Shown here one piece after another: positions 1 to 13,746 of a stretch of 14,096 nt of DNA; position 1 is the first letter of the stretch; every line of letters begins with the position of its first letter. This stretch comes from an uncultured Lachnospiraceae bacterium. Lineage in GTDB: Bacteria; Bacillota; Clostridia; Lachnospirales; Lachnospiraceae. The translations under genes were made by a program, and so were the position numbers. The notes under the pieces are model-generated. The model saw nothing but the letters and a program-made list of their open reading frames with translations, had not been told where the DNA came from and ran no database searches. Location of the stretch: NCBI GenBank assembly GCA_964643295.1, contig CAZXSN010000073.1:1-14096 (forward strand), given 5' to 3'.

Positions 1-1454
1 TCATAGTTTTCCACGAAGGAGACATACTCGCCCATGAATTTTTCGTAGCTGTCCATCGCCGCTTTGAAATCCGGACGTAATCCGTTCTCGTCCAGAACTT
101 CCTCTTTCGCATCCTCCGTAGAAGGTTTCACCTGAATGGGCACTCCGCCCGCTTCCTTATTTCCTTCTGAAACAGGCTGAGCCTCGGTTTCTGCTTCTGT
201 ATCGGTTTCTGTTTCAGTTTCGGTTTCTGCTTCGGTTTCCCTTTCTTCCTTAAGCGTTTCAGGAACAGCCGCTTTGGTGTCCTCTTCCAGGTCGGCCTCC
301 GCAGTCGATTCAACGTAATCCTTCGGAGCTTTGATCTCGATGCTCATTATGGAGTTGCCTTCAAATCTTATAGACACGTGCCAGCCCGCAGCGTTATCCG
401 CATCATATGCGTTTTCTTCTCTGCTGTAATCCACGTTGAAGCCTCTTTCCGAGCAGGCCGAAACATACTTCTCGTATGCTTCCTTATCGGTATCGCCAAC
501 GTAAACAAAGAAACTGGTATCGCGCTCATAAGAAAACTTACCGGTTGTGGACTCCGGAACCGGAAGCTGACTGCCTGCCGCGCCTGCAGGCCAGGTGATT
601 GTCTGCATTTCCATAGGCGCAAATACGGCTATGGTCAGGGTATTTCCGGTATGGCTCATATCCAGACAGTAGCCGTCTGCGTCATAAGCCTTATAAGTCA
701 CAGAACTCTTCTGCGGATCTCCGGTAAACCCTTTTTCCATGCAGGCATCCAGATAGTCGTTGTATTCCTTATCTTCCATCCCGGAATTATAAAAAATCCG
801 CAGCGCCTCATCGGAGTTTTCTATCACCTCTGCATCATCGGCTGGCGGTTCCGGAATCCGGTTTCCCAGTTCCATCGCTGACCAGTCAAGTACTGCCGTT
901 TTCTTTCCTGCCTGATTCTCCCCCTCAGACTGCTGATAGACATAGACGAAAAAAACAGCCAGAATCACCAGCAGAATAAACCACCAGCGTAGAAAAATGG
1001 GTTTCTTCTTTGGTGTTTTGTTCCCTGCCTTTTTGCCCTTCTTCTTTCCTCCCTGACTGTACTGCGGCGGAACGGATGCCGTCTGCTGATACGCGTATGA
1101 TTGCTGACTGTCCGCGCTTTCGAACCGCTGCCCAGCGGCTGAAGGATCCGTGTAATTCCAGGCTTCTTCTCTTCTTCTGACAGGTGTATCGGAGTAACTA
1201 TCTTCTGCGGCTCTCGTCCCGCACTCCGGGCAAAAAATTCCTTCAAATCTGGTACCGCACACCCGGCATCTTACTGTCCGCGGTCTGTTGGCTTCCGCAC
1301 CTGTCTGAGAATCTCCTCCTGTGCCCTGCGGGTGGGATTCCAATCCCTGCCGGTTTCCAACAGGCGGAGGGGAGGGGATATCCCGCGAAGCCCTTGTTCC
1401 GCATTCCGGGCAGAAGTTGCCTTCAAACTCTGTCCCGCAGTTTCTGCACCTCAT
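1..1454 (-). CDS. Tandem zinc-ribbon transmembrane protein with a duplicated extracytoplasmic domain. Its 3' end is truncated by the window edge.
   Basis: I translated the minus strand codon by codon from the ATG at 1454 to position 3 and found no stop; the supplied track omits this ORF because it runs off the edge. The start is preceded by GGGGGA about 7 nt upstream. The N-terminus has two CxxC-N9-CPECG zinc-ribbon units (MRCRNCGTEFEGNFCPECGTRA and RCRVCGTRFEGIFCPECGTRA). A K-rich stretch is followed by one TM helix (IFLRWWFILLVILAVFFVYVY). After it come two copies of a domain of about 60 aa (DYLDACMEKGFTG...YKAYDADGYCLDM and EKYVSACSERGFNVDY...YDADNAAGWHV) and an acidic TE-rich linker. The track ORFs at 128..313, 368..622 and 965..1246 are the wrong frame of this gene. 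Confidence 0.8.
   Translation of the reverse strand, partial: MRCRNCGTEFEGNFCPECGTRASRDIPSPPPVGNRQGLESHPQGTGGDSQTGAEANRPRTVRCRVCGTRFEGIFCPECGTRAAEDSYSDTPVRRREEAWNYTDPSAAGQRFESADSQQSYAYQQTASVPPQYSQGGKKKGKKAGNKTPKKKPIFLRWWFILLVILAVFFVYVYQQSEGENQAGKKTAVLDWSAMELGNRIPEPPADDAEVIENSDEALRIFYNSGMEDKEYNDYLDACMEKGFTGDPQKSSVTYKAYDADGYCLDMSHTGNTLTIAVFAPMEMQTITWPAGAAGSQLPVPESTTGKFSYERDTSFFVYVGDTDKEAYEKYVSACSERGFNVDYSREENAYDADNAAGWHVSIRFEGNSIMSIEIKAPKDYVESTAEADLEEDTKAAVPETLKEERETEAETETETETDTEAETEAQPVSEGNKEAGGVPIQVKPSTEDAKEEVLDENGLRPDFKAAMDSYEKFMGEYVSFVENY
185..238. repeat. Three tandem 18-bp repeats (cggtttctgYttcNGttt) that encode the TE-rich acidic linker of CDS 1..1454
   Basis: Read directly: 185-202 cggtttctgcttctgtat, 203-220 cggtttctgtttcagttt, 221-238 cggtttctgcttcggttt. 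On the minus strand these translate to ETEAETETETETDTEAETEA. Confidence 0.6.
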
Positions 1455-1499
1455 GCCAACATCCCCCTTCTCATACAGAAAGCACCCGTAACCAGAAAC

Positions 1500-2822
1500 T
1501 TATTTCTCCCTGGGAGGAATCGGCGGAATCTCCGGGAAGAGACTTTTTAGCGTCTGCACACTGCCCGCTTTCTCCCACTGACTCATCCCTTCCGTCCACA
1601 CCAGGGAATCTTTTTGAAGCTGTCCGGATGATACCATACTTTTCAAAGTTTCCAAGTCAAAAGGACCTGTCGGCTGTTCACCCGCAGCCACGTAAAAGGT
1701 CACCCTGGGAATTGGCGGCGGAACACTTCCCGTCTGCCCAGGAACAGGACCTCCCCGCATCACAGAATTCATGGAACCGGCGATGTTCTGACCGATGGCC
1801 CCGCCAACCGCCATGCTGGCCATCCAGGCCGCCATGTTGAACCCGTGCTGATCTCCAAGGTTAACGTTCCCGGAACCGTTCTCCCCCATTTTGCCAAGGG
1901 CCTGTGCACCCGCGATCCCTACTTCCGTCTGCTTTTCCACCTGATAGGCACCGAGATTGGACGACTGTGTCTGCTTGTGCAGGGAGTACTGTCCCTCTTC
2001 CCGCTGAATGCGCAGCCGCTCCACGTAATCCTGCGTCTCCGCCTGTATCTTCGCCCCGGTGACATCTCTGCTGACGCTCATGAGGTTCCGGTAGCCTTCA
2101 CTGGTTTTATCCAGTTCGATCGCCCCGATGTCCACACCGGATACTTCCACGCCGAAGTCCTCCCGCAGCCGGTCTTTTAGGTACAGTTCCGAGGCATCGT
2201 TGATCATCGCCGTCTTGGTCTCGATCTGAACAAGGGGAATATCATACTCTGCCGGGGCGTTCGCCACCGTATCCTTGACATATCTGGTCACCACGTCTCT
2301 GATCTGCCGCTGAAAATCCGCTGGCTGAAAAGTCGTAAGCCTGTGCAGCTTTACGAACTGCCTGTAATCGGCGATCCGAAAAGTCACGGTTCCCCTTACT
2401 GCTGTCGGCACCCCGAAATCCGCGAACCTGGGATCATAGATATCAAAAAAGGGAACTGCAAACTTCACCTGGATAACCTGGGCGAGATTGATAAAGTAAA
2501 CTTCCGCCTGAAAAGGAGTCCCTCCCTCATAGGCAAGTCCCACAAGACTGGCCAAAACCGGCAGGTTCCCGGTTTTGAGGATCTCATCAAACGGTCCGAC
2601 AATAAAATCCTCTGAAGTTTGGCTGCCGCGCCCATATACGAATACTGCCACTTCCCCATCCTTCACGCGCAGGGAAGATCCCCACCTGATCGCGTTCTCC
2701 CGCTCTTCACTGCCCTCTGCAACCCCCGGCGGATGCCACTTCCAGATCAGATACGAAGGCTCATCACAGCGGATCACGTCCATAAATCCGCCGTCTTTTT
2801 GTTTCCTGTCAAAAAGCCCCAT
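1500..2822 (-). CDS. SPFH/band-7 family protein (Band_7_1 / YdjI-like) with a C-terminal DUF4339 (GYF-like) domain
   Basis: This is a 440-aa ORF in the supplied track. Its ATG at 2822 follows GGAGGTG at a 7-nt spacing. The N-terminus (MGLFDRKQKDGGFMDVIRCDEPSYLIWKWHP...) and the following roughly 250 aa fit the stomatin/flotillin-like SPFH 'virion core protein' family. A G/M/A-rich low-complexity linker follows. The C-terminal segment GPFDLETLKSMVSSGQLQKDSLVWTEGMSQWEKAGSVQTLKSLF matches the DUF4339 pattern. The gap to the downstream gene is 45 bp, so the two are probably co-transcribed. Confidence 0.85.
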   Translation of the reverse strand: MGLFDRKQKDGGFMDVIRCDEPSYLIWKWHPPGVAEGSEERENAIRWGSSLRVKDGEVAVFVYGRGSQTSEDFIVGPFDEILKTGNLPVLASLVGLAYEGGTPFQAEVYFINLAQVIQVKFAVPFFDIYDPRFADFGVPTAVRGTVTFRIADYRQFVKLHRLTTFQPADFQRQIRDVVTRYVKDTVANAPAEYDIPLVQIETKTAMINDASELYLKDRLREDFGVEVSGVDIGAIELDKTSEGYRNLMSVSRDVTGAKIQAETQDYVERLRIQREEGQYSLHKQTQSSNLGAYQVEKQTEVGIAGAQALGKMGENGSGNVNLGDQHGFNMAAWMASMAVGGAIGQNIAGSMNSVMRGGPVPGQTGSVPPPIPRVTFYVAAGEQPTGPFDLETLKSMVSSGQLQKDSLVWTEGMSQWEKAGSVQTLKSLFPEIPPIPPREK

Positions 2823-2977
2823 AAAGGCACCTCCATTCCCTGTCCGCGCTCTTTTAGCGGCCTGGTGTGTTTCCTCTCCCGCTCATGGCCCACAGCCCCT
2901 GAGAATAAAGCTTCCCGGTCTGTTTCTGTCCTCTCTTTGATCACTTTTTGCTTCCCTGCTGCCGAAATGCGATGCCG

Positions 2978-3838
2978 TTACCTGTTCGAATGATGCGAAT
3001 TCTTCACTCCTTTGTAGGAATTGACCGCTCCGACGATCAGAACGATCACTCCGCACAGCTGAACGACGGAGCCATTCTCAAACGCGAACGACAGCAGGAC
3101 TGTGAATAATCCGCTCCCGATACACACAGCATAATCGATGAGGGACGCTCCTCTCCTGCCAAGAGAGGCAGCGGAAGCGATCAGAACAATACAGGCCGCC
3201 GGTTCCATCAAAGAGGAATTGCCGCCCGACCGGTCCACAAACGCCGCTGAGACGAGAAGCAGGATACCCGCACAGAAGACAATGTTTCGCAGCACGGTTT
3301 CCAGCGTAAACTTGTGTCTTTGCCGCTGTTTTTCTGAGGCGATATTGTTCTGGCAGTTTTCATAAATGCTCTGAATTTTGACAAAATCCTCATCCGACTG
3401 AAAAAGCAGTCTGGCCTTCTGGTAGGCCTGCTCAAATTTTGCCAGCCACGCCTCGTAGATATCCCGCTCATCTTCACCCAGAATGTTTGAGGATGCCAGG
3501 ATCATGAACTCCAGGATATCCTCCTTCGCATTGGGAATGGGGAAGCTGCGGATCATCTCATCTTTTTCCTCCACCGTTGTCCGCCGGTTTAACTCGCGGT
3601 AAAATTCCTGAGCGGAGAATGTGGCCTCCGCTCCCCTCAACTCATAGCCGCAGGCAGGGCAGCTGCCGACAAAAGAAGAAATCAGCTCCCCGCAGTTCGG
3701 ACATTTATAGAGCTTCCCTTCATAGACGGTCTCCCGCTGGGAGGTCGGTTTTTTATGCGGAAGGACACGCTGTCCGCAGTTTGTACAGAATTTCGCCCCT
3801 TCCGGGAGTTTCTGTCCGCAGTTCGTGCAATATGCCAT
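2978..3838 (-). CDS. Double zinc-ribbon membrane protein (YdjG-like N-terminus with C-terminal TM helices)
   Basis: The track ORF 2978..3856 starts at a GTG. I prefer the ATG at 3838 (MAYCTNCGQ...), which has GGAGGAGG 9 nt upstream. The protein has two zinc-ribbon pairs (CTNCG...CTNCG, then CPNCG...CPACG). A cytoplasmic helical region follows. Two to three hydrophobic helices sit at the C-terminus (IVFCAGILLLVSAAF, ACIVLIASAASL, LCGVIVLIVGAV). Confidence 0.8.
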   Translation of the reverse strand: MAYCTNCGQKLPEGAKFCTNCGQRVLPHKKPTSQRETVYEGKLYKCPNCGELISSFVGSCPACGYELRGAEATFSAQEFYRELNRRTTVEEKDEMIRSFPIPNAKEDILEFMILASSNILGEDERDIYEAWLAKFEQAYQKARLLFQSDEDFVKIQSIYENCQNNIASEKQRQRHKFTLETVLRNIVFCAGILLLVSAAFVDRSGGNSSLMEPAACIVLIASAASLGRRGASLIDYAVCIGSGLFTVLLSFAFENGSVVQLCGVIVLIVGAVNSYKGVKNSHHSNR

Positions 3839-3862
3839 GATGAATACCTCCTCCACACAAAG

Positions 3863-4081
3863 TCAGTCTTCTTCCCGCCGATAAGCATCGCAGATATCCC
3901 CAATGTTACAGTCCAGGTAATCGCATATTCTTAACAGCACGGAAAGAGCGACCTCCTCATTATGACGCAGTTTGGTCATCGTACCGGTGGCTATGTTGAG
4001 ATCCTTTCTCAGTGTCGCAGGAGATATTTCTTTTTCGATGAGCAGTATCCAAAGCTTTTTGTAGCTTATCCGCATACTCAT
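3863..4081 (-). CDS. Small XRE/Cro-C1-type helix-turn-helix transcriptional regulator (72 aa)
   Basis: The ATG at 4081 has AAGGAGG 8 nt upstream. The sequence SYKKLWILLIEKEISPATLRKDLNIATGTMTKLRHNEEVALSVLLRICDYLDCNIGDICDAY is typical of short HTH_26/XRE regulators of about 70 aa. Its stop lies 6 nt before the next gene's GTG codon (24 nt before my preferred ATG). Confidence 0.8.
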   Translation of the reverse strand: MSMRISYKKLWILLIEKEISPATLRKDLNIATGTMTKLRHNEEVALSVLLRICDYLDCNIGDICDAYRREED

Positions 4082-4092
4082 ATCTGCAGCCT

Positions 4093-4137
4093 CCTTAAGA
4101 TAAGCTGCAAATCGATCACATACCGCTTACCCTTAAG
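4093..4137. promoter_or_regulatory. Imperfect inverted repeat (CCTTAAGATAAGC ... GCTTACCCTTAAG) between the -10 element and the RBS of the XRE gene; candidate autoregulatory operator
   Basis: Half-sites lie at 4093-4105 and 4125-4137, with an ATCGAT palindrome at the centre. The right half overlaps the proposed -10 element. Confidence 0.3.
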
Positions 4138-4165
4138 CATAACACAGGATATAGCAATTTGTCAA
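4136..4165 (-). promoter_or_regulatory. Putative sigma-A promoter for the XRE regulator operon (TTGACA, 18-nt spacer, TATGCT)
   Basis: On the minus strand, TTGACA is the reverse complement of 4160-4165 and TATGCT the reverse complement of 4136-4141. The -35 element is perfect. The -10 element keeps T1, A2 and T6. It sits about 55 nt upstream of the ATG. Confidence 0.35.
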
Positions 4166-4832
4166 TGCGATTTGCTGTCATTTTGAGTAAATTTCGCAAC
4201 TTCTTGCGGTATCTGTTATAGTCTTAATCTCTAACTATCTATTTTGAAGCCCAGCCTGGCCATCCGATTGCTGCAGACTCATTGTCTGTTTCATGAATCT
4301 GCTTCCCTGCAAAGCAGGTCTGCTCTGCTCTAAGCCACGCTAAAGAGCCAGGAAGCCAGGCGGTTTACAAGTCTTTTCTTCCCTTAACTATAGCAGGATC
4401 AGAAGAATTTTGCATTAAAAATCATGGGAAATTTGCAAATTTGCGATGAATTGATTCAAGAACTTACGATCTTTTCGCATCCGGTAAACGTTTCCGTCCG
4501 GACTGTCTGCGGTGCCTGCCCCTTACGGCAAAGACCTCTGCCCTTTCGATTTAAGATCACCTGGTTTCCTGATCCGGGTTTTGCTCTTCAGCAGCGGTCT
4601 GAGAACCGGTCTTTTCTTTTCATCCGGTCAGAAGCATTCGATTCTCAGGCCTTCCAATTGGGGAAGGGGAGATCTTTCTGTCATGCCGATAAATCTACAT
4701 ATCAGCATATATCGATGTGAGCGCAGATTCCTCCCTGTTCTGCGGACTGTCTGGCCTTCAAACCCTCCGGAGAAGGGTTTCCCATGGAGAAACCAGATAC
4801 TGCAAAGGCACAGGGACAAAGGCACAGGGACG

Positions 4833-4871
4833 AAAAAATGGTGCCGCTCTTACGGCACCATCTGAGTTTTT
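4833..4871 (-). terminator. Rho-independent terminator downstream of the SH3b-repeat gene; possibly bidirectional
   Basis: The stem is GGTGCCG (4840-4846) paired with CGGCACC (4853-4859), with loop CTCTTA. On the minus strand the stem is followed directly by ATTTTTT. On the plus strand a T5 run follows 7 nt after the stem. It lies about 110 bp past the stop at 4971. Confidence 0.7.
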
Positions 4872-4970
4872 GTGTCTGCGTTTTCTGTCTGTATTTTCTT
4901 TCTTTGTTGTTTTGCGGCTCTTTGGTAAGGCTTGTAAGGCACACGGCCTTCCATTTCGGGAGACACGAGG

Positions 4971-6401
4971 TTAATACAGATAGTTGCTGTTTACGTATCC
5001 GTATTTCTGAAGCGTGGGCGCATAGACATACCAGTACGTGGAATCGGAAGTATCCTGTACCTGCACCGTCTCTCCGGTATAGAGCTTGCCGATCTCATTC
5101 GAATAGTCGTAGGCTTTCGCGTTGCGAAGCGCCAGATAGCCGCTCTCCACGCGGACCGTCTTTGTCACACCCGAAACGGAAGAGGAGGATGTTGAAACCA
5201 GATAGTTTCTGTTCACATAGCCGGACTTCCCGAGCTTGGAGGAATACACATACCAGTAGTCAGAATCCGACTTATCCTGGACCTGTACCGTATCTCCGGT
5301 GTAGAGCTTGCCAATCTCATTCTCGTATTCGAATGCCTTTGCCGTCCGCAGCGCCAGATAGCCGCTCTCCACTCTCACGGTCCAGGTTTCTCCTGAAACC
5401 GGGGCACTGGCTAAAGCGACCAGATAATTCTTATTCACGTAACCGGACTTATTCAGCGACGGCGCGTAGACATACCAGTAGGTATCATCCGACTTATCCT
5501 GGACCTGCACCGTATCGCCGGTGTAGAGTTCCCCGATTTCATTCTTATATTCGAAGGCCTTGGCCGTTCGAAGCGCCAGATAACCGCTGTCCACTTTCAC
5601 AGACCAGGTCTCCCCGGATGCTGACACACCAGTCGGGGCGATCAGATAATTCCGGTTTACATAGCCGGATTTGTTCAGCGATGGCGCATAGACATACCAG
5701 TAAGTATCATCTGACGTATCCTGAACCTGCACCGTATCCCCGGTGTAGAGCTTGCCGATCTCATTTTCATATTCGAAAGCCTTGGCCGTTCGAAGTGCCA
5801 GATAGCCGCTGTCCACTTTCACGGTCCAGCCATAGGACGACGGCGCAATCAGATAATTCCGGTTTACATACCCGGATTTCCCAAGCGACGGGGCGTAGAC
5901 ATACCAGTAGGTGGAATCGGAAGTATCCTGTACCTGCACCGTATCGCCCGTATAGAGTTCTCCGATCTCATTCTCATATTCGAAGGCTTTGGCCGTTCGA
6001 AGCGCCAGATAACCGCTGTCCACCTTCACGGTCCAGTACCCGGAAGTGTTCGTCGTCACAGGCTTCGAGGAAGAGGAGGAGGATACCGCCTTTAAATAGT
6101 CTTTGTTGACATAGCCGTATTTATCCAGCTTGGAAGAATAGACATACCAGTAGTCGGAATCCGTAGAATCCAGCACTTCCACCGTATCGCCCGTATAGAG
6201 CTTCCCGATCTCATTATAATAATCGAAGGCTTTCGCTGTCCGAAGCGCCAGATAGCCTTCCGTGACCTGCACCCGGTAGGTGGAACCGGCAGCCAGACAG
6301 GTTTTGCCAGCAGGCAGCAGAGTAACCGCCAGGGTAATCATAAACAGCAGCAGCCACCGGGATAAAGTCTTTTTCCCGGAACCAGTTTCATATCTTTCCA
6401 T
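4971..6401 (-). CDS. Secreted protein made of six tandem bacterial SH3 (SH3b/SH3_3) domains
   Basis: The track ORF 4971..6566 overlaps the upstream gene. I prefer the ATG at 6401 (MERYETGSGKK...), which has AGGGAGGA 6-7 nt upstream and sits 13 nt after the upstream stop. The N-terminus is a signal peptide (WLLLFMITLAVTLLPAGKTCLAAG). Six repeats of about 68 aa follow, each with GYLALRTAKAF-Y-NEIG-LYTGDTV-VQD-SD--YWYVY----K-GYVN-NYL. This is the SH3b pattern. Confidence 0.85.
   Translation of the reverse strand: MERYETGSGKKTLSRWLLLFMITLAVTLLPAGKTCLAAGSTYRVQVTEGYLALRTAKAFDYYNEIGKLYTGDTVEVLDSTDSDYWYVYSSKLDKYGYVNKDYLKAVSSSSSSKPVTTNTSGYWTVKVDSGYLALRTAKAFEYENEIGELYTGDTVQVQDTSDSTYWYVYAPSLGKSGYVNRNYLIAPSSYGWTVKVDSGYLALRTAKAFEYENEIGKLYTGDTVQVQDTSDDTYWYVYAPSLNKSGYVNRNYLIAPTGVSASGETWSVKVDSGYLALRTAKAFEYKNEIGELYTGDTVQVQDKSDDTYWYVYAPSLNKSGYVNKNYLVALASAPVSGETWTVRVESGYLALRTAKAFEYENEIGKLYTGDTVQVQDKSDSDYWYVYSSKLGKSGYVNRNYLVSTSSSSVSGVTKTVRVESGYLALRNAKAYDYSNEIGKLYTGETVQVQDTSDSTYWYVYAPTLQKYGYVNSNYLY
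4974..6281. repeat. Six tandem, highly similar coding repeats of about 204-210 bp (the SH3b units)
   Basis: Long near-identical nucleotide blocks recur with this period. One example is ccgatctcattctcatattcgaaggcYttggccgttcgaagYgccagataRccgctgtccac. Protein-level identity between units is above 80%. Confidence 0.85.
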
Positions 6402-6414
6402 CACAATTCCTCCC

Positions 6415-7428
6415 TTATCCGCAGTAGTAATCGTAAATCTGTCTGCTGAGTGACGCAATCGTCGACTGAGCACTTCCCACATCGGAGAGATTTTCCGACA
6501 TGAAGACAATGACCAGATCGTTGGCTGAATCATAGAGAATCCCCGCATCGTTTTCCACGTCGTCAAGTTCCCCGGTCTTGTTGGCGACGGACACGCCCTC
6601 CGGCATCTGCGCCGGGATCTTGTTTCGCCGCTGCTGCGCCTTTAACAGGGAATACATGGCATCCGCATAAGGATATTCTTCCACATTTTCGTAGTAGATC
6701 TCCTGCAGAAAATGCCCGCAGTCATTCACCGAAGTATAGTTGTCATCATACTCATTGCTGTGCAGAAGCAGCCGTCCCATATGCGACTGGAAATATCCGT
6801 GGTTCATGCAGAACTCATTCACCGCCGCCATCCCGGCATCCGTATCTCCGCCTCCCAGACAGCTCACCAGCTGATTCGCGGCTTCGTTGTCGCTGACCGT
6901 GATCATGGAATAGAGCCAGGAATCCAAAGATGCCGGATCATACTGAGCAGCCAGATCCTCATAAGATACATAGACCGCCCCCATGATGTAAAGCTTGATC
7001 AGGCTGGCGGCCTGCATACGCCGATCGTCGATGGCGGATTCGGTCCCCTTCACGAGGTCGCTTACATAGACAGCCCACTCTCCGTTTGAGCCGGGCAAGA
7101 GTCCCCTGATCTGAGACAGAAGGCTTTCCAGTTCCTCATCCACCGGCAGTTCCTGGCCTTCCGTCTGGCCTTCTGTCATTTCTTCCCCGCTTTCTGCCTC
7201 ACTTACTTCCTCAGTCGAGGCAGCCTCACTTTCCTCCCCGACCGTTTCCGGAGGAGCCTCAGGATGGTCTAAAGCCGCATCCGTCTCCTCCTCCCCGGCA
7301 TTCGTTTCGGTCACCGGATCCGCCTCTGGCTTCCGCTCCTCCGCGAAACTTACGCTGCAGCTCCCCAAGGTAAAGAGCAAAGTAAGCGTCAGGATCAGCA
7401 GATGCCTCCTCCGCAGCCGATCTTTCAT
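6415..7428 (-). CDS. Class-A beta-lactamase-fold serine hydrolase lipoprotein with an acidic E/T-rich linker
   Basis: This is a 337-aa ORF. Its ATG at 7428 follows AGGGGGAAGG. The signal sequence has a lipobox (LLFTLGSC). The three class-A beta-lactamase motifs are present: SxxK (ASLIK), SDN (VSDNEAAN) and KTG (ANKTG). Its stop lies 13 nt before the SH3b gene start, so the two genes likely form an operon. Confidence 0.8.
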   Translation of the reverse strand: MKDRLRRRHLLILTLTLLFTLGSCSVSFAEERKPEADPVTETNAGEEETDAALDHPEAPPETVGEESEAASTEEVSEAESGEEMTEGQTEGQELPVDEELESLLSQIRGLLPGSNGEWAVYVSDLVKGTESAIDDRRMQAASLIKLYIMGAVYVSYEDLAAQYDPASLDSWLYSMITVSDNEAANQLVSCLGGGDTDAGMAAVNEFCMNHGYFQSHMGRLLLHSNEYDDNYTSVNDCGHFLQEIYYENVEEYPYADAMYSLLKAQQRRNKIPAQMPEGVSVANKTGELDDVENDAGILYDSANDLVIVFMSENLSDVGSAQSTIASLSRQIYDYYCG

Positions 7429-7613: not shown

Positions 7614-8081
7614 TCAGTCCAGATAGGCCGTATAGTGCATATCCTCCGGAGTGAGCGTATCCAGGACCTTTAAGTACTCCGCTGCTTCTCTTCTGCACCC
7701 TTCCAGGTCATGGTCGAGATAGTTCCCGCACTCTTCCTCTTTGGCTCCCGGAATCTCGCCTTCAAACGTGGTCATGGCCCGATACGATTCCCGAATACAG
7801 TCCAGCACTTCCTCATTGCTCAAGCCTCTGGTCAGAAAGTAGACACCGGTCCTGCAGCCCATGGGTCCGACATAAATGATGCCGTCCTTATATTTGCCGT
7901 TGCGGGCAAAGGTCGCGAAGAGATGCTCAATCGTGTGGCTCACTGCGGTGGAGAGGTAATCTCCGTGATTGGGTTCCTTCATGCGCACGTCCCAGGTCAT
8001 GATATCGTCATCCTGCCGGGACAGATACACGCCTCTTTTCAACTTTGTGTGATCAATACTGAAACTTGGAATTCTCTGCAT
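7614..8081 (-). CDS. luxS: S-ribosylhomocysteine lyase (autoinducer-2 synthase) LuxS
   Basis: The track ORF starts at 8276. I prefer the ATG at 8081 (MQRIPSFSIDHTKL...), which has AGGGAGG 7 nt upstream. That start gives 155 aa, the typical LuxS length. The HTIEH metal-binding motif and the PMGCRTG motif are present. A consensus promoter lies inside the track's N-terminal extension, which argues against the longer ORF. Confidence 0.9.
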   Translation of the reverse strand: MQRIPSFSIDHTKLKRGVYLSRQDDDIMTWDVRMKEPNHGDYLSTAVSHTIEHLFATFARNGKYKDGIIYVGPMGCRTGVYFLTRGLSNEEVLDCIRESYRAMTTFEGEIPGAKEEECGNYLDHDLEGCRREAAEYLKVLDTLTPEDMHYTAYLD

Positions 8082-8144
8082 CCTTTTGCCTCCCTGATAC
8101 GCTTTCCGGATCTTCCTTTTCTCCCGGTTTTCCTGTTGTGTGTT

Positions 8145-8173
8145 ATTATACAGCAATCCGCCCCGTTTGCCAA
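8145..8173 (-). promoter_or_regulatory. Sigma-A promoter for luxS (TTGGCA, 17-nt spacer, TATAAT)
   Basis: On the minus strand, TTGGCA is the reverse complement of 8168-8173 and a perfect TATAAT is the reverse complement of 8145-8150. The spacer is 17 nt. The leader is about 57 nt to the ATG at 8081. Confidence 0.5.
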
Positions 8174-8206
8174 TATGCCCCAGCAAAGATTTTCGATCTG
8201 ATTCGT

Positions 8207-8283
8207 CTGTAATGCCTGATTCATCTGAGATCTGTAATGCCTGCTGCATCCAAAGATTCCGCAATGCCTGATCCATCTGATGG
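8207..8283. repeat. Three imperfect direct repeats of about 25 bp (core AATGCCTG-N-T-N-CATC) just upstream of the luxS -35 element
   Basis: R1 at 8207 is ctgtaatgcctgattcatctgagat. R2 at 8232 is ctgtaatgcctgctgcatccaaagat. R3 at 8259 is ccgcaatgcctgatccatctgatgg. The spacing is 25-27 bp. Confidence 0.4.
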
Positions 8284-9985: not shown

Positions 9986-12139
9986 TTACGCGGGCAAAAT
10001 CAGGTGCTTTACATGCCCCTCCAGAGAAACTTCCGGTGATGTCCCATCATCGTCGTAGAGCTCATAGACCGCTCCCGCCTCCGCATAGTGGCAGAGCGTC
10101 AGGTGCTCCCAGTCCACCTCCTCCACGCACTGGGCGCTGTCAGCCAGGGGAAGGATGTATCCCTTTCGAATAAACAGCACCACCTCTTCCAGGGGAATCG
10201 ATACATAATGATGCCCTGCGGGCAGTTCCTTTTCCTCCGCGATCCTGTCGCCCGCAAAGCGTACCAGCTTCATCGGTTCCGGCAGGTAAACGATTCGTCC
10301 GCCCGCGTTCTGCTCATACACCGGCGCGATCAGAATGCTTTCCCCGATCAGCAGCTCATCTTCCGTCTGCCTGGCAACCGTATCCTTCGTCCAGACAAAA
10401 CCTAAAGGTCTCGCATACATCTTCCCGCGAAGCGCCGCTTTCATGAATTCGCTGTAGAGATAAGGAAGCAGACGGTACCGCAGCGACAAAATCCCCCGAA
10501 AAGCATCAACATCACCGAACGCATAAGGCTCCTGGGTGCGTGTTCCCGCTGCCGAATGATTGCGAAACAGCGGCAGAAAGATTCCCAGCGCCATCCATCG
10601 AAGCAGCAGATCCCGGGTGCAGTCGGCTCCAAAGCCGCCGATATCCGCCCCGGTATACAAAAATCCGCACATGTTTAAGGAGGGAGCCATCTTCAGGTTC
10701 ATGAGAAGATGCGACCACCAGGATCGATTATCCCCCATCCAGATCCCGGCGTATCGATGCATTCCAATATACGAGGCCCGGGAAAACAGAAGTGTCCGCT
10801 TATCGGGGCGCAGCTCCTCAAAGGCTTCCGCAGCCGAGCGCGTCATGTGAAACCCAAACAGGTTGTGGACCTGATCATGCCGCACAAGCTCTCCTTTGTA
10901 GTCATGGTAAAAGCTGCGGTAATCCTCAGGGTTTTTCGCCAGTGTCATGATCAGGTTCTGAAACTCAAAGGCCGTCTGAACGCTTAAGTCTTCCTCTTTG
11001 TACCCCTGGATTTTGGCCAGCACCTGCTTAAGACGCCTCTCGGAGTAGAAAAGAGCCGGTTCATTCATGTCGTTCCAGAAGCCTTCGATGCCTTTCTCCA
11101 GCAGCACCTCATACTTACGGCCAAACCACCGGCGGGCATCCTCGTTTAACATATCGGGGAAATAGCAAAGACCCGGCCATACACCCACCGCGAACGGCTC
11201 GCCGTTTTCATCTTTGCAAAAATACCCGCGCTCCAGTCCCTCCACGCAGACTTCATACCCTTCTTCTGCCTTTACACCGGCATCGATGATCGGAATCAGG
11301 CGGATATGCTGCGCACGCATCTCCTCTACAAGCTCTTCAAAGTCCGGGAATGTTTCCCGGTTAATCGTAAAGTCCTTGTAATGATCCATGTAATCGATGT
11401 CCAGATAGATCATATCTAACGGCAGACGGTTGTCCCGGTACTGTTTCGCGACCTTCCGCACATCCTCCGACGTTCGGTAACCCCAGCGGCTCTGCCCAAA
11501 GCCAAAGGCCCATTTCGGCGGCAGATAACTTGGCCCGATCAGTTCCCTGAAAGCATACACCACGTCATCCGGCGTCTCCCCGTAAATAAGGTAGAGATCA
11601 AACGCCCCGCCTTCCACCGTGATCTCCAGGCGGTCGGTGTCAGTATAGCCGATATCAAAGGTCACCTTCGCCGGTGTATCCAAAAAGATCCCCCGCTGTC
11701 TCTCCCCGGAGAGCAGAAGAAAGTTGTGGGCGCCGTAAAGGGAATGGGTATCCTCCTGGTGATGCGGTTCATCCGTACAGTCGCTTACATACAGCCAGCC
11801 GCGCTTGTTCATTCCACGCACCTGCTCTCCCAGGCCGTAAACAATCTCCCCTTTTTCAAGGGGCAGGGAAAGCACCGCCTCCTCATCCGGTATCTTTCTT
11901 ACAGGGCGTTTTGTTTCCCCGCTCTCACCGCCGCATTCCTTTTTTTGAACCGCGGTCTTCGCGGGTGCCTTTGGTTCCTCTTTGGCCGCTTCCCAGAAAG
12001 CACCCGCGCCAGCCGGTCTCTTAACAGCCGGTCTGACCGTAATCGTCATATCCGGCAGATCCTGCCAGCTTTGCGGATCCGGTTTGCAAAGAACCGCCTC
12101 CGTCTCTATGGGAACTCCAAACACAAATCTTCTGACCAT
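9986..12139 (-). CDS. Glycoside hydrolase family 31 alpha-glucosidase/alpha-xylosidase
   Basis: The track ORF starts at a TTG at 12301. I prefer the ATG at 12139 (MVRRFVFGVP...), which has AGGAGGA 7 nt upstream. That start gives 717 aa. GH31 signatures include DIDYMD, the catalytic region GFWNDMNEP, and WMGDN...GADIGGF. Confidence 0.9.
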   Translation of the reverse strand: MVRRFVFGVPIETEAVLCKPDPQSWQDLPDMTITVRPAVKRPAGAGAFWEAAKEEPKAPAKTAVQKKECGGESGETKRPVRKIPDEEAVLSLPLEKGEIVYGLGEQVRGMNKRGWLYVSDCTDEPHHQEDTHSLYGAHNFLLLSGERQRGIFLDTPAKVTFDIGYTDTDRLEITVEGGAFDLYLIYGETPDDVVYAFRELIGPSYLPPKWAFGFGQSRWGYRTSEDVRKVAKQYRDNRLPLDMIYLDIDYMDHYKDFTINRETFPDFEELVEEMRAQHIRLIPIIDAGVKAEEGYEVCVEGLERGYFCKDENGEPFAVGVWPGLCYFPDMLNEDARRWFGRKYEVLLEKGIEGFWNDMNEPALFYSERRLKQVLAKIQGYKEEDLSVQTAFEFQNLIMTLAKNPEDYRSFYHDYKGELVRHDQVHNLFGFHMTRSAAEAFEELRPDKRTLLFSRASYIGMHRYAGIWMGDNRSWWSHLLMNLKMAPSLNMCGFLYTGADIGGFGADCTRDLLLRWMALGIFLPLFRNHSAAGTRTQEPYAFGDVDAFRGILSLRYRLLPYLYSEFMKAALRGKMYARPLGFVWTKDTVARQTEDELLIGESILIAPVYEQNAGGRIVYLPEPMKLVRFAGDRIAEEKELPAGHHYVSIPLEEVVLFIRKGYILPLADSAQCVEEVDWEHLTLCHYAEAGAVYELYDDDGTSPEVSLEGHVKHLILPA

Positions 12140-12393
12140 GAAAGTATCCTCCTCTCGCAAAGATCCATCCTGTATCCAACTTTTCAGCGCACAGTCATCT
12201 GCCATGCAGAAAGCTTCCAGATGTAAGCAGCCAAAAAGAGTAAAAGTTCCTCTGTAGCCGAACACATTTTCTGTTGGATACACTTTGGGAAATCCTGGCA
12301 ATCAACTGTGGAAGCAACCCGGGGAAGTTTCGGCAAAAATGCATCTGCCTGTCTGCCCTGAAAAGAAAGGATGTAAAAAAGGGCATAAAAAGA

Positions 12394-12464
12394 AGCAGGT
12401 GAGGGGAATCGAACCCCCCTCTCCAGCTTGGGAAGCTGGCGTTCTACCGATGAACTACACCTGC
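12394..12464 (-). tRNA. tRNA-Gly (anticodon CCC)
   Basis: The minus strand reads GCAGGTG-TA-GTTCATCGGTAGAAC-G-CCAGC-TTCCCAA-GCTGG-AGAGG-GGGGG-TTCGATT-CCCCT-CACCTGC-T. This gives a cloverleaf with a 7-bp acceptor stem, a T-loop TTCGATT and the anticodon loop U-CCC-AA. No CCA is encoded. Confidence 0.85.
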
Positions 12465-12482
12465 ACGTCCTGAACAAACTTT

Positions 12483-12511
12483 ATTATATCCCCATCGTCC
12501 ACGTTTTTCAA
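12483..12511 (-). promoter_or_regulatory. Sigma-A promoter (TTGAAA, 17-nt spacer, TATAAT) for the tRNA-Gly gene
   Basis: On the minus strand, TTGAAA is the reverse complement of 12506-12511 and TATAAT the reverse complement of 12483-12488. The predicted start site is about 12 nt upstream of the tRNA 5' end. Confidence 0.55.
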
Positions 12512-12814
12512 GTGTTTTTTTCAAAAACTGAAAACCGCCCGAGGAACATCCGAAAAAGTCAAGAAACATCGTACATCTGCGGGACTTTCAGGCAAGAGGA
12601 GCTCTGAAGAGTAAACCTTCGTCGAAAAGCGGTCAAACAAGTCACTCCATCAGGCTCTCTGGCCAGTACTCAATATAAGGAAGCAATCCGGCAGCACCTT
12701 CCTTCATCTTTTCCCGAAAACCTTAGAAAACAGGGAAAAGAGCTTTCTTCCCATAAACACGCTCCTTCCCCCGCGCCCAGATAGCCTCTCTGATATCGGA
12801 TCACAGAGAAGCCT

Positions 12815-13696
12815 TTAAGAGCGCTCTTCCTTCTTTTGGCGCTCCTTTAACCACTCCTCAAGCGGTTCCATACTCCGGATGGCTTCCTTCCTCCCCAGAT
12901 CATACACCCGCTGAATCTGCTGCGGATCCGTCTCCAGCCTGCCAATCCCCAGATCCTTCTCGGGACGGATCACGAATACACTGCCCTGCTTTTCCAGGCG
13001 GCGGATATAGGAGAGGGTGTGGTTGTAATCCTGGGGGCGGTTTTTCATGGCCCGGCGAAATGCCGGATAACGCCAGTAAACCAGCCAGGAGAGATCCTTC
13101 TTCTCAGGCTGCTTTACATAATCCGCCGGTTGCGTAAGCACCAGCACATTGCTGCGGTAACCCATTCTGCGAAAAGCCCTGACCGGAATGCTGTCCGTGC
13201 AGCCGCCGTCCAACAGTTTCATGCCGTCCACCTTGACAACCTTAGAGACAAACGGCAGCGATGCCGATGCGCGGATATAGTCAATCTGGCGCTTCATATC
13301 GGTGATCTGCAGATACTCAGGCCTGCCGGTCTCCACGTTGCTGCAGGTTACAAAAAACTTCGTCGGTGAGGCTTTGAAGGCCTGATAATCGTAAGGATCC
13401 AGCCGCTCCGGAATGTCGTGGTAGCAGAACTTTTCATTCACGATCTCTCCGGTGCGCAGCAGACTCTTGATACCCATGAACCGGTCATCGCCGCAGTATT
13501 TTTTATAGTAGCGAATGCTTCGCCCATGCTGTCCTGACACAAAGGAACACCCGTGAATCGCTCCGGCCGATACGCCGATCAGCCCGTCAAAAGTAAGCCC
13601 ATGCTCCATGAACACATCCAGAACACCGGCTGTAAAAATGCCGCGCATCCCTCCGCCTTCCAGAACCAGACCCAGTTTGCCCGATTCACCGCTCAT
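12815..13696 (-). CDS. Patatin-like phospholipase
   Basis: The track ORF starts at a TTG at 13738. I prefer the ATG at 13696 (MSGESGKLGLVLEGGGMRG...), which has AAGGGAGGAA 5 nt upstream. That start gives 293 aa. The oxyanion-hole motif GGGMRG and the serine motif GVSAG (GxSxG) are present. A D-G-G catalytic aspartate motif (LLDGGC) is also present. Confidence 0.85.
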   Translation of the reverse strand: MSGESGKLGLVLEGGGMRGIFTAGVLDVFMEHGLTFDGLIGVSAGAIHGCSFVSGQHGRSIRYYKKYCGDDRFMGIKSLLRTGEIVNEKFCYHDIPERLDPYDYQAFKASPTKFFVTCSNVETGRPEYLQITDMKRQIDYIRASASLPFVSKVVKVDGMKLLDGGCTDSIPVRAFRRMGYRSNVLVLTQPADYVKQPEKKDLSWLVYWRYPAFRRAMKNRPQDYNHTLSYIRRLEKQGSVFVIRPEKDLGIGRLETDPQQIQRVYDLGRKEAIRSMEPLEEWLKERQKKEERS

Positions 13697-13724
13697 CGTG
13701 ATTCCTCCCTTTACAAATGAAACA

Positions 13725-13746
13725 GGTACGCCCGTCAAAGCGTACC
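13725..13746. promoter_or_regulatory. Inverted repeat (GGTACGC, 8-nt loop, GCGTACC) in the leader just upstream of the patatin RBS
   Basis: A perfect 7-bp stem lies at 13725-13731 and 13740-13746. On the plus strand it is followed by TTCCTTTTCC. Confidence 0.3.

Follow-up and report, generated by a model that had tools for sequence, protein, structure and literature searches.

Proteins of the SPFH (flotillin-like) class are, to our knowledge, universal, and their mechanisms in bacteria are poorly understood. SamGHI of Bacillus subtilis is the one well-studied soluble SPFH system that we know of, and it is entangled with PspA. The present analysis concerns a four-gene cassette in contig CAZXSN010000073.1 of an uncultured Lachnospiraceae bacterium (assembly GCA_964643295.1), where a stretch of 14,096 nucleotides (nt), called the window here, was analyzed. 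The cassette encodes a small XRE regulator, a membrane protein with two zinc ribbons (ZnR1), an SPFH protein with a C-terminal GYF domain, and a second double-zinc-ribbon membrane protein (ZnR2).

The B. subtilis module, PspA-SamGHI (YdjFGHI), is under sigma-W control as pspA-ydjGHI (PMC8581546). YdjG combines a pair of zinc ribbons with an NTF2-like (YpeB-related) domain and a transmembrane (TM) segment, and YdjH is a TPM-domain protein (PMC11237479, PMC8581546). YdjI is a soluble band-7 protein with a region of low complexity plus a C-terminal zinc ribbon, and is recruited to the membrane by YdjG and YdjH (PMC11237479, PMC8581546); elsewhere it is described merely as "band 7" (PMC9239133). 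SamI restrains SamGH signalling (bioRxiv 10.64898/2026.02.06.704340).

HflK/C-FtsH and stomatin-NfeD (QmcA-YbbJ) also encode an SPFH scaffold together with a dedicated membrane partner, and the scaffold is thought to organize or restrain the activity of that partner. In contrast, the cassette SPFH protein has no membrane anchor of its own and belongs to Band_7_1 instead of Band_7, and its partner is neither a protease nor NfeD.

GltJ of Myxococcus is a case in which zinc ribbon(s) and a GYF domain work together with proline-rich sequences on the cytoplasmic side of membrane proteins, as the corresponding parts of the cassette might; its GYF domain binds a proline-rich sequence directly with micromolar affinity (PMC11135422). 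A zinc ribbon is adjacent in 44% of bacterial GYF proteins, and the pair has been proposed to act as a switch (PMC11135422). GltJ is one polypeptide with a flexible linker, whereas in the cassette the GYF domain is on the SPFH scaffold and the zinc ribbons are on separate proteins, so that they would act in trans. The cassette also lacks the MglA/MglB or AglZ context and occurs in Firmicutes, not myxobacteria.

The fusion of SPFH and GYF domains was listed in 2007 by Balaji and Aravind (PMC2034487), who also noted the flanking proline-rich stretches and TM neighbors of bacterial GYF proteins. Their case has the same two domains, proline-rich flanks, and TM neighbors as the cassette, but it is a single example, from a planctomycete, described without an operon, a regulator, a partner family, a distribution, or an operator. 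An earlier note on the window, made from its sequence, had called this combination of domains under-described; the SPFH-GYF fusion is an exception to that statement, which otherwise agrees with a literature search in which no paper mentioning DUF6591 or Band_7_1 was found.

The four genes form a real cassette, operon-like and widely conserved among gut and oral Firmicutes. By analogy with the systems above, they probably encode a soluble flotillin-like SPFH scaffold that docks onto membrane proteins with zinc ribbons, with a small DNA-binding protein as regulator. Our preferred reading, to which we give a probability of about 0.5, is that the cassette is self-contained and autoregulated and may serve envelope or membrane stress tolerance, or signalling, without a linked PspA.

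All four genes are on the minus strand. The XRE gene (3863-4081) encodes 72 amino acids (aa) of the HTH_26 type and is followed by the gene for ZnR1 (2978-3838; 286 aa from ATG, double zinc ribbon, four TM helices). The SPFH gene (1500-2822) encodes 440 aa with Band_7_1 and GYF_2 domains and no TM helix. The ZnR2 gene (1-1454) encodes a double zinc ribbon, a single TM helix, and DUF6591, and 484 of its 547 codons are inside the window. The gaps between the four open reading frames (ORFs), from XRE to ZnR2, are 24, 155, and 45 nt, exactly as the earlier note gave them for four co-oriented genes, and Pfam agreed with all of its domain calls (XRE, zinc-ribbon pairs, SPFH, and a DUF4339/GYF-like tail). 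No convincing internal terminator was observed within the cassette. The best promoter of the region is sigma-70-like (4136-4165, minus strand; TTGACA, 18 nt, TATGCT with extended TG) and has 10 of 12 matches.

Relatives were sought in one genome per species, and 508 genomes carried one. Locus counts are taken from the best 80, where all ORFs were searched with the domains of the window; denominators vary with the available flank. These best 80 of 508 are 62-71% identical and come from Lachnospiraceae, Oscillospiraceae, Streptococcus, Peptoniphilus, Sedimentibacter, and Massilicoli. A few short contigs from metagenome-assembled genomes are labelled Bacteroides, Actinomyces, or Hallerella and may be mis-binned or transferred.

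Synteny holds, as the same gene order recurs in many distant genomes. A ZnR1-type protein is encoded directly upstream of the SPFH gene in 73/75 loci, with a median gap of ~14 nt, and an XRE ortholog is upstream in 51 of the 57 loci with enough flank. A DUF6591 protein is downstream of SPFH in just 16/65 loci; in 10 loci DUF6591 is instead fused into the upstream zinc-ribbon protein, and two ZnR1 paralogs occur in 8 loci. The core thus consists of XRE, ZnR1, and SPFH-GYF, and the DUF6591 gene is accessory and exchangeable, not the core fourth member that it had been taken for. In the neighborhoods of two SPFH relatives, the order is HTH_26, DZR-TM, Band_7_1+GYF_2, and ZnR-DUF6591 in different flanks, or HTH_26, DZR-DUF6591, and SPFH. 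With ZnR1 homologs (44-53% identity) as the starting point, the same cassette was recovered. The 155-nt gap between ZnR1 and SPFH in the window is larger than usual, as might be seen if the four genes were merely adjacent and functionally unrelated. That explanation is effectively refuted by synteny, as order and adjacency are kept in 73/75 species-level loci across Clostridia and Bacilli with differing flanks.

In Streptococcus sanguinis and S. gordonii, only a ZnR1-type protein (250 aa) and an SPFH-GYF protein (447 aa) are encoded, between mutS and mutL (L092 6208-8308; also L075 and L086). Neither an XRE gene nor the XRE-linked palindrome described below is present ahead of this pair. The ZnR1 and SPFH pair is the minimal unit. 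Two accessory ORF families were also observed. One, of 150 aa, is found in 6 loci (e.g., L019 2055-2504) and lies between XRE and ZnR1 in 5 of them, and the other, of 114 aa with one TM helix, directly follows SPFH in 4 loci (e.g., L079 8570-8911).

In the SPFH protein, a coiled region comes after the SPFH domain and is followed by a low-complexity stretch rich in Met, Gly, and Ala (about residues 320-356); the C-terminal domain is GYF_2. Band_7_1 (PF13421) covers residues 41-238 (2109-2702, minus strand; E 8.4e-21, 75 bits against a cut-off of 24), and GYF_2 (PF14237, formerly DUF4339) covers residues 377-425 (1548-1694, minus strand; E 7.3e-17, 61.3 bits against 25.8). The GYF profile matches the solved GYF domain of GltJ (7z3c, E 1e-06). 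Hydrophobicity in the protein nowhere reaches TM grade (maximum KD19 1.43), and Pfam found no zinc ribbon in it, its C-terminus being GYF_2. At E<=1e-5 there were at least 8,000 SPFH-GYF_2 candidates, which is all those scored; the 120 listed are ~70% identical and have the same architecture.

Short proline motifs flank the GYF domain. PPPIP (residues 368-372; 1707-1721, minus strand) is just N-terminal to it, and PPIPP (residues 433-437; 1512-1526, minus strand) is at the C-terminus. Among 80 orthologs, PPP is present N-terminal of GYF_2 in 76 and MPPIPP at the C-terminus in 71. The pattern PPP[IVL] or PP[IVL]P is present in 78/79 SPFH proteins and in 7/802 background ORFs. It is also present in 11/21 DUF6591-type partners, and in each of these it comes shortly after the first zinc ribbon, at residues 28-49. 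The enrichment over background is ~100-fold in SPFH proteins and ~25-fold in DUF6591 partners, at fixed positions.

ZnR1 is probably the membrane anchor or partner of the SPFH protein. Its two N-terminal zinc ribbons (residues 1-66) are matched by Zn_Ribbon_1 (5.6e-14) and DZR (1.5e-08) in Pfam. These are followed by a cytoplasmic helical domain (about residues 70-185) with no Pfam match and, in the AF2 model, by four TM helices (residues 186-284). The model (pLDDT 79.6) predicts a helical bundle, then a long helix and the TM helices. The signature of the helical domain is R-x-F-P-I-P-N-x-K-E-D ... W-x2-K-x-E-Q-x-Y-Q-K, and R-x-F-P-I-P-N-x-K-E-D ... E-F ... W-x2-K ... K is invariant in 1,207 homologs of ZnR1 (E<=1e-3). 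Searched alone against 1.84 billion representatives, the domain was found in 1,444 clusters at E<=1e-3 and 581 at 1e-10. It almost always directly follows a double zinc ribbon, in host proteins of 120-780 aa. Ten long proteins have DZR and variable C-termini, e.g., BspA-type leucine-rich repeats (LRR) or DUF6591, and Pfam matched the helical domain in none of the ten.

ZnR2 is 547 aa at full length, as read from a second contig (L001) that carries an identical SPFH gene. DUF6591 (PF20234) matches in two stretches (7.2e-66, 222.7 bits against 27.1) and DZR at 2e-06 (Pfam). From N- to C-terminus, the protein has two zinc ribbons, then a cytoplasmic linker of low complexity and one TM helix. These are followed by two alpha+beta repeats of DUF6591, an acidic linker and, at the C-terminus, a helical region. 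The motif PPPV (residues 29-32; 1359-1370, minus strand), a candidate GYF ligand, is in the linker that follows the first zinc ribbon, within IPSPPPVG at residues 26-33. The single TM helix (about residues 153-176; 927-998, minus strand; KD19 2.46) is preceded by a Lys-rich stretch, which points to an N-in, C-out orientation.

The two extracytoplasmic tandem repeats of ZnR2 (about residues 188-282 and 283-378; 321-893, minus strand) each have the order beta-beta-alpha-beta-beta-beta-beta with a Y-x2-C-x2-GF helix. They are true duplicates (28% identity, E 7e-12). The earlier note had described this duplication and the acidic linker correctly; what it took for an uncharacterised fold is the known Pfam family DUF6591. 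The ectodomain was modelled with a pLDDT of ~97 as two units followed by a disordered acidic T/E linker and a helix. The structure-similarity search proposed for the repeats was run with Foldseek and gave nothing at E<=0.001 in the PDB; the closest solved folds are weak matches to PA1624 and DcrB. As modelled, the DUF6591 ectodomain is a generic extracytoplasmic alpha+beta sandwich without a close solved relative.

Judged by analogy, the cassette would work like SamGHI without being a member of that module. In both, a band-7/SPFH protein lacks TM segments and has, besides a stretch of low complexity, a small adaptor domain at its C-terminus, and the SPFH gene is beside a gene for a membrane protein that starts with two zinc ribbons. 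The adaptor is GYF_2 in the cassette, whereas in YdjI it is a zinc ribbon. ZnR1 has a helical domain and four TM helices, whereas YdjG, by description, has an NTF2-like domain and one TM segment. The cassette is under a dedicated XRE and palindrome instead of sigma-W and, unlike SamGHI, has optional receptors with DUF6591 or LRR ectodomains.

The likeness to YdjGHI raised in the earlier note is thus correct for the SPFH class and for a partner with two zinc ribbons; it does not extend to TPM (YdjH), the C-terminal zinc ribbon, or PspA, nor apparently to the NTF2-like domain. Two zinc ribbons and a TM segment, known of YdjG by description alone, are present in both ZnR1 and ZnR2. The middle of ZnR1 is all-helical, and ZnR2 has no folded cytoplasmic domain and a PA1624/DcrB-like sandwich as ectodomain that is not clearly NTF2. 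TPM_phosphatase was absent from the proteins of the window, the Pfam-annotated neighborhoods, and the recurrent neighbor clusters. Likewise, PspA_IM30 was found neither in the 14-kb window, where none had been seen before, nor within +/-8-10 kb of the Pfam-annotated loci.

Upstream of the XRE gene is a conserved palindrome (4194-4209, minus strand) that reads CCGCAAGAAGTTGCGA and is a candidate operator for the XRE (HTH_26) protein. An alignment of the DNA upstream of XRE genes gives the consensus TCGCAA-GAAG-TTGCGA with symmetric A/T-rich flanks, and the window has a single match. A shared promoter/operator had been placed at 4093-4165, a range that includes the one promoter-like site and misses the palindrome. 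With at most 2 mismatches of 12, the palindrome is upstream of the cassette in 58/81 loci. In 900 kb of loci there are 36 strict sites, and 32 of these are just upstream of an XRE gene. In related loci, TTGAC and TATAAT hold constant positions relative to the palindrome, and its spacing to the -35 element is 27-28 nt in 28 loci and 15 nt in 7.

The palindrome TCGCAAGAAGTTGCGA is probably the binding site (operator) of the cassette XRE. It could instead be a cassette-borne bidirectional intrinsic terminator or insulator hairpin. A scan flags it as terminator-like, its symmetric A-run and T-run flanks resemble those of bidirectional terminators, and in a second class of loci it comes just after a relaxase-like gene. 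This possibility was judged less likely and, in our view, is unlikely. The stem is just 6 bp with 3 G-C pairs, and what is conserved is the sequence of the arms, not their pairing. Arm variants are one-sided, with a compensated pair in 1 of 30 variants, and at least 9 loci have the arm TTGAGA with no compensating change opposite. The central 4 nt may be inverted with the arms unchanged. A dimeric protein site is favored over an RNA hairpin because the spacing to the -35 element is fixed, arm changes are uncompensated, and the center is invertible. That the palindrome accompanies HTH_26 proteins in two operon types with no relation to each other also stands against a terminator.

The second of these operon types was seen in metagenome contigs, where the exact 16-mer has at least 120 matches. 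Among the 120 listed, 24 adjoin cassette XRE genes and 11 head a different gene array. The palindrome thus heads both the cassette and an unrelated array that ends in HTH_26, and the motif travels with HTH_26, not with SPFH. The second array consists of co-oriented genes on low-GC gut contigs (L136 7731-7746; L161 1251-1266; L213 1154-1169; also L121, L133, L137, L184, L185, L187, L200, and L214). Its genes encode flavodoxin-like, HD-domain, NUDIX-like, GNAT, and histidine-phosphatase proteins and a 908-aa protein. The array ends 3-7 kb downstream of the palindrome with a 235-aa protein whose N-terminal HTH_26 is related to the cassette XRE (E ~1e-16). In L137, L161, and L213, the palindrome directly follows the relaxase-like gene. 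This array may be a second type of regulon for the palindrome and HTH_26 pair.

The XRE protein belongs to HTH_26 (Cro/C1 type; E 6e-19 in Pfam) and is a bare 72-aa helix-turn-helix without a sensor domain. It scores 70.6 bits (E 9.6e-20) against VanU (NCBIfam NF000090), under the equivalog cut-off of 150, and is thus a member of the HTH_26 family only. VanU of the vanG operon, likewise a small HTH_26 regulator, resembles it in length and sequence; in contrast, the cassette has no van genes and its XRE score is far under the cut-off. The partial matches to VanU and GltJ were the only ones to specific NCBIfam families.

The regulator could also be the output of the system and not only its control. 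Zinc-ribbon domains would then sequester or release the HTH_26 protein on signals from the ectodomains, as in anti-sigma or anti-repressor systems, and SPFH would be a brake, as SamI is on SamGH (bioRxiv 10.64898/2026.02.06.704340). The layout of zinc ribbon, TM segment, and variable ectodomain parallels membrane-tethered regulators, a bare helix-turn-helix would suit such a role, and an operator near -70 suits an activator of controllable availability. However, the streptococcal and phage versions keep ZnR1 and SPFH without XRE, so XRE is not an essential output, and any contact between a zinc ribbon and XRE is conjectural. We regard this trans-membrane signalling model as improbable.

The cassette is mobile in part. 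In 11/80 loci it directly follows a rumA/rlmD-type 23S rRNA methyltransferase gene. In L005 and L007 (6600-21335), on its other side are genes that belong to an integrative mobilisable element and encode a sigma factor, an XRE protein, a primase, a DUF5906 helicase, a Mob_Pre relaxase, and a serine recombinase. There the cassette resembles cargo carried at one end of an element that has inserted beside the methyltransferase gene. Near the cassette, clusters of serine-recombinase, Mob, and primase genes are found repeatedly, and identical copies of one SPFH protein have different genomic flanks. This mobility explains the broad distribution, and it also keeps alive the idea that the cassette is a conflict system.

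In that case, the cassette would act against phages or by abortive infection, exclude superinfection or conjugation, or sense bacteriocins. Variable receptors (DUF6591, LRR, others) would detect an invader, SPFH would hold a four-TM ZnR1 effector inactive until triggered, and XRE would keep expression low, as in many defense operons. The mobility just described, a taxonomic distribution that is patchy yet very broad at 62-71% identity, variable membership, and exchangeable ectodomains are consistent with this. Integrase or recombinase genes adjoin the cassette in L008 and L011-12, a type I restriction-modification system and Abi_alpha are upstream in one locus (L006), and the ZnR1 and SPFH pair is on a few phage contigs. 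A conflict role is nevertheless unlikely in our view. The earlier note had hinted at phage defense, yet none of the four proteins matched a defense family in PADLOC-DB v2, save one chance-level zinc-ribbon match (E 0.034). Pfam found no nuclease, NTPase, protease, or known pore-forming effector domain. Defense genes are not among the recurrent neighbor clusters, and the streptococcal cassette is at a fixed chromosomal site.

Carriage by viruses and plasmids is also scarce. In IMG/VR, 3 of 2.9 million viral contigs carry the ZnR1 and SPFH pair. On two of them (L093 6579-8729 and L094 7217-9272), the pair is at ~58% identity, without XRE, among genes that are phage-like by their translated starts. 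The sole phage record found is GenBank MT835670.1 ("Bacteriophage sp."), with a 58% SPFH match at 14466-15842. No cassette was found on plasmids, which have just SPFH proteins at ~25% identity. That the cassette is typically borne by phages or plasmids was therefore rejected.

In a more elaborate version of the conflict idea, the cassette would be a "receptor-SPFH cage" that moves horizontally. External threats such as phage adsorption, a bacteriocin, or a host factor would be detected by zinc-ribbon receptors with exchangeable surface domains (DUF6591, BspA-type LRR, others). Contacts of proline motifs with GYF, and of zinc ribbons, would lead to an SPFH assembly that gates ZnR1, and the XRE and palindrome pair would keep the system poised. 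We consider this speculative and decidedly improbable; if true, it would be an unrecognised class of membrane-based immunity, or of envelope signalling without a linked PspA gene.

For a membrane-scaffold cassette that acts in envelope stress or signalling, the following mechanism is proposed. By analogy with SamGHI/YdjGHI, the soluble SPFH protein would oligomerise beneath the membrane. ZnR1 would dock the SPFH-GYF oligomer via its conserved cytoplasmic helical domain and zinc ribbons. The precedent is the recruitment of SamI/YdjI to membrane foci by YdjG and YdjH in B. subtilis (PMC8581546; bioRxiv 10.64898/2026.02.06.704340). The GYF_2 tail would bind short PPP[IV]/PP[IV]P motifs. Those beside the GYF domain could lead to self-association or autoinhibition, and those in the cytoplasmic linkers of DUF6591 partners to their recruitment. 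Variable ectodomains might sense the state of the envelope and couple it to the sub-membrane scaffold. An XRE dimer on the palindrome would set expression of the operon, by repression or activation.

Several points weigh against this proposal. All of its protein contacts are inferred, and Pfam found no effector or enzymatic domain in the four proteins that would provide an output. The proline motif is in only 11/21 DUF6591 partners and 4/73 ZnR1-type proteins; GYF-motif binding is therefore not a universal docking mode for ZnR1. The center of the palindrome is ~70 nt upstream of the inferred transcription start, which is unusual for a simple repressor. No HTH_26 is detectable near 76 of the 120 listed 16-mer matches, and many of the exact matches in metagenome contigs are probably due to chance. 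YdjI, called "band 7" in the papers, is presumably a PF13421 protein. Finally, the cassette is at times on integrative mobilisable elements, which also fits a role in conflict or defense.

The rest of the window contains genes outside the cassette. Between the cassette promoter and the next gene are ~760 nt without a convincing ORF (4210-4970), with no Rfam match even at E<=1. The lowest GC of the window, 0.41, is at 4001-4500. Rfam searches of the whole window and of the 4082-4990 gap gave one tRNA, one chance-level match, and nothing else. The next gene (4971-6410, minus strand) encodes a secreted protein with 5 or 6 near-identical repeats of ~75 aa of the bacterial SH3 (SH3_3) type. For this gene, a TTG at 6566 is listed as the start; it overlaps the gene upstream, and the true start is probably further downstream. 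A plus-strand ORF of 441 aa (4784-6109) is a shadow of the repeats. The LuxS ORF (7614-8276, minus strand) is listed with an N-terminal extension of 65 residues; the true start is probably an internal Met (MQRIPSF...), because the Pfam LuxS domain begins only at residue 68.

A tRNA gene (12394-12464, minus strand; Rfam, 67.8 bits) follows a patatin-like gene downstream and closely precedes the start listed for a GH31 alpha-glucosidase ORF. The patatin-like phospholipase, which also contains DUF6363 (12815-13738, minus strand), is encoded 9 kb from the cassette. Such a gene is also just downstream of the cassette in L009 and L010 (Eubacterium-type loci, 12085-12927). Membership in the module was considered and rejected, as side and orientation differ and the gene is in no other loci; the association is probably coincidental.

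An SPFH scaffold with a zinc-ribbon membrane partner is already known as a type. New here are the candidate XRE operator, the candidate GYF ligand motif, and the un-annotated helical domain of ZnR1. The cassette is a compact relative of SamGHI without pspA in the operon and is present in at least 508 species-level genomes, including those of genetically tractable streptococci. It offers the candidate operator and GYF ligand motif as handles, along with the un-annotated partner domain (~1,400 clusters) and a natural version of just two genes. The cassette could reveal how a soluble SPFH scaffold docks to membrane receptors and what role such modules have in anaerobic commensals.

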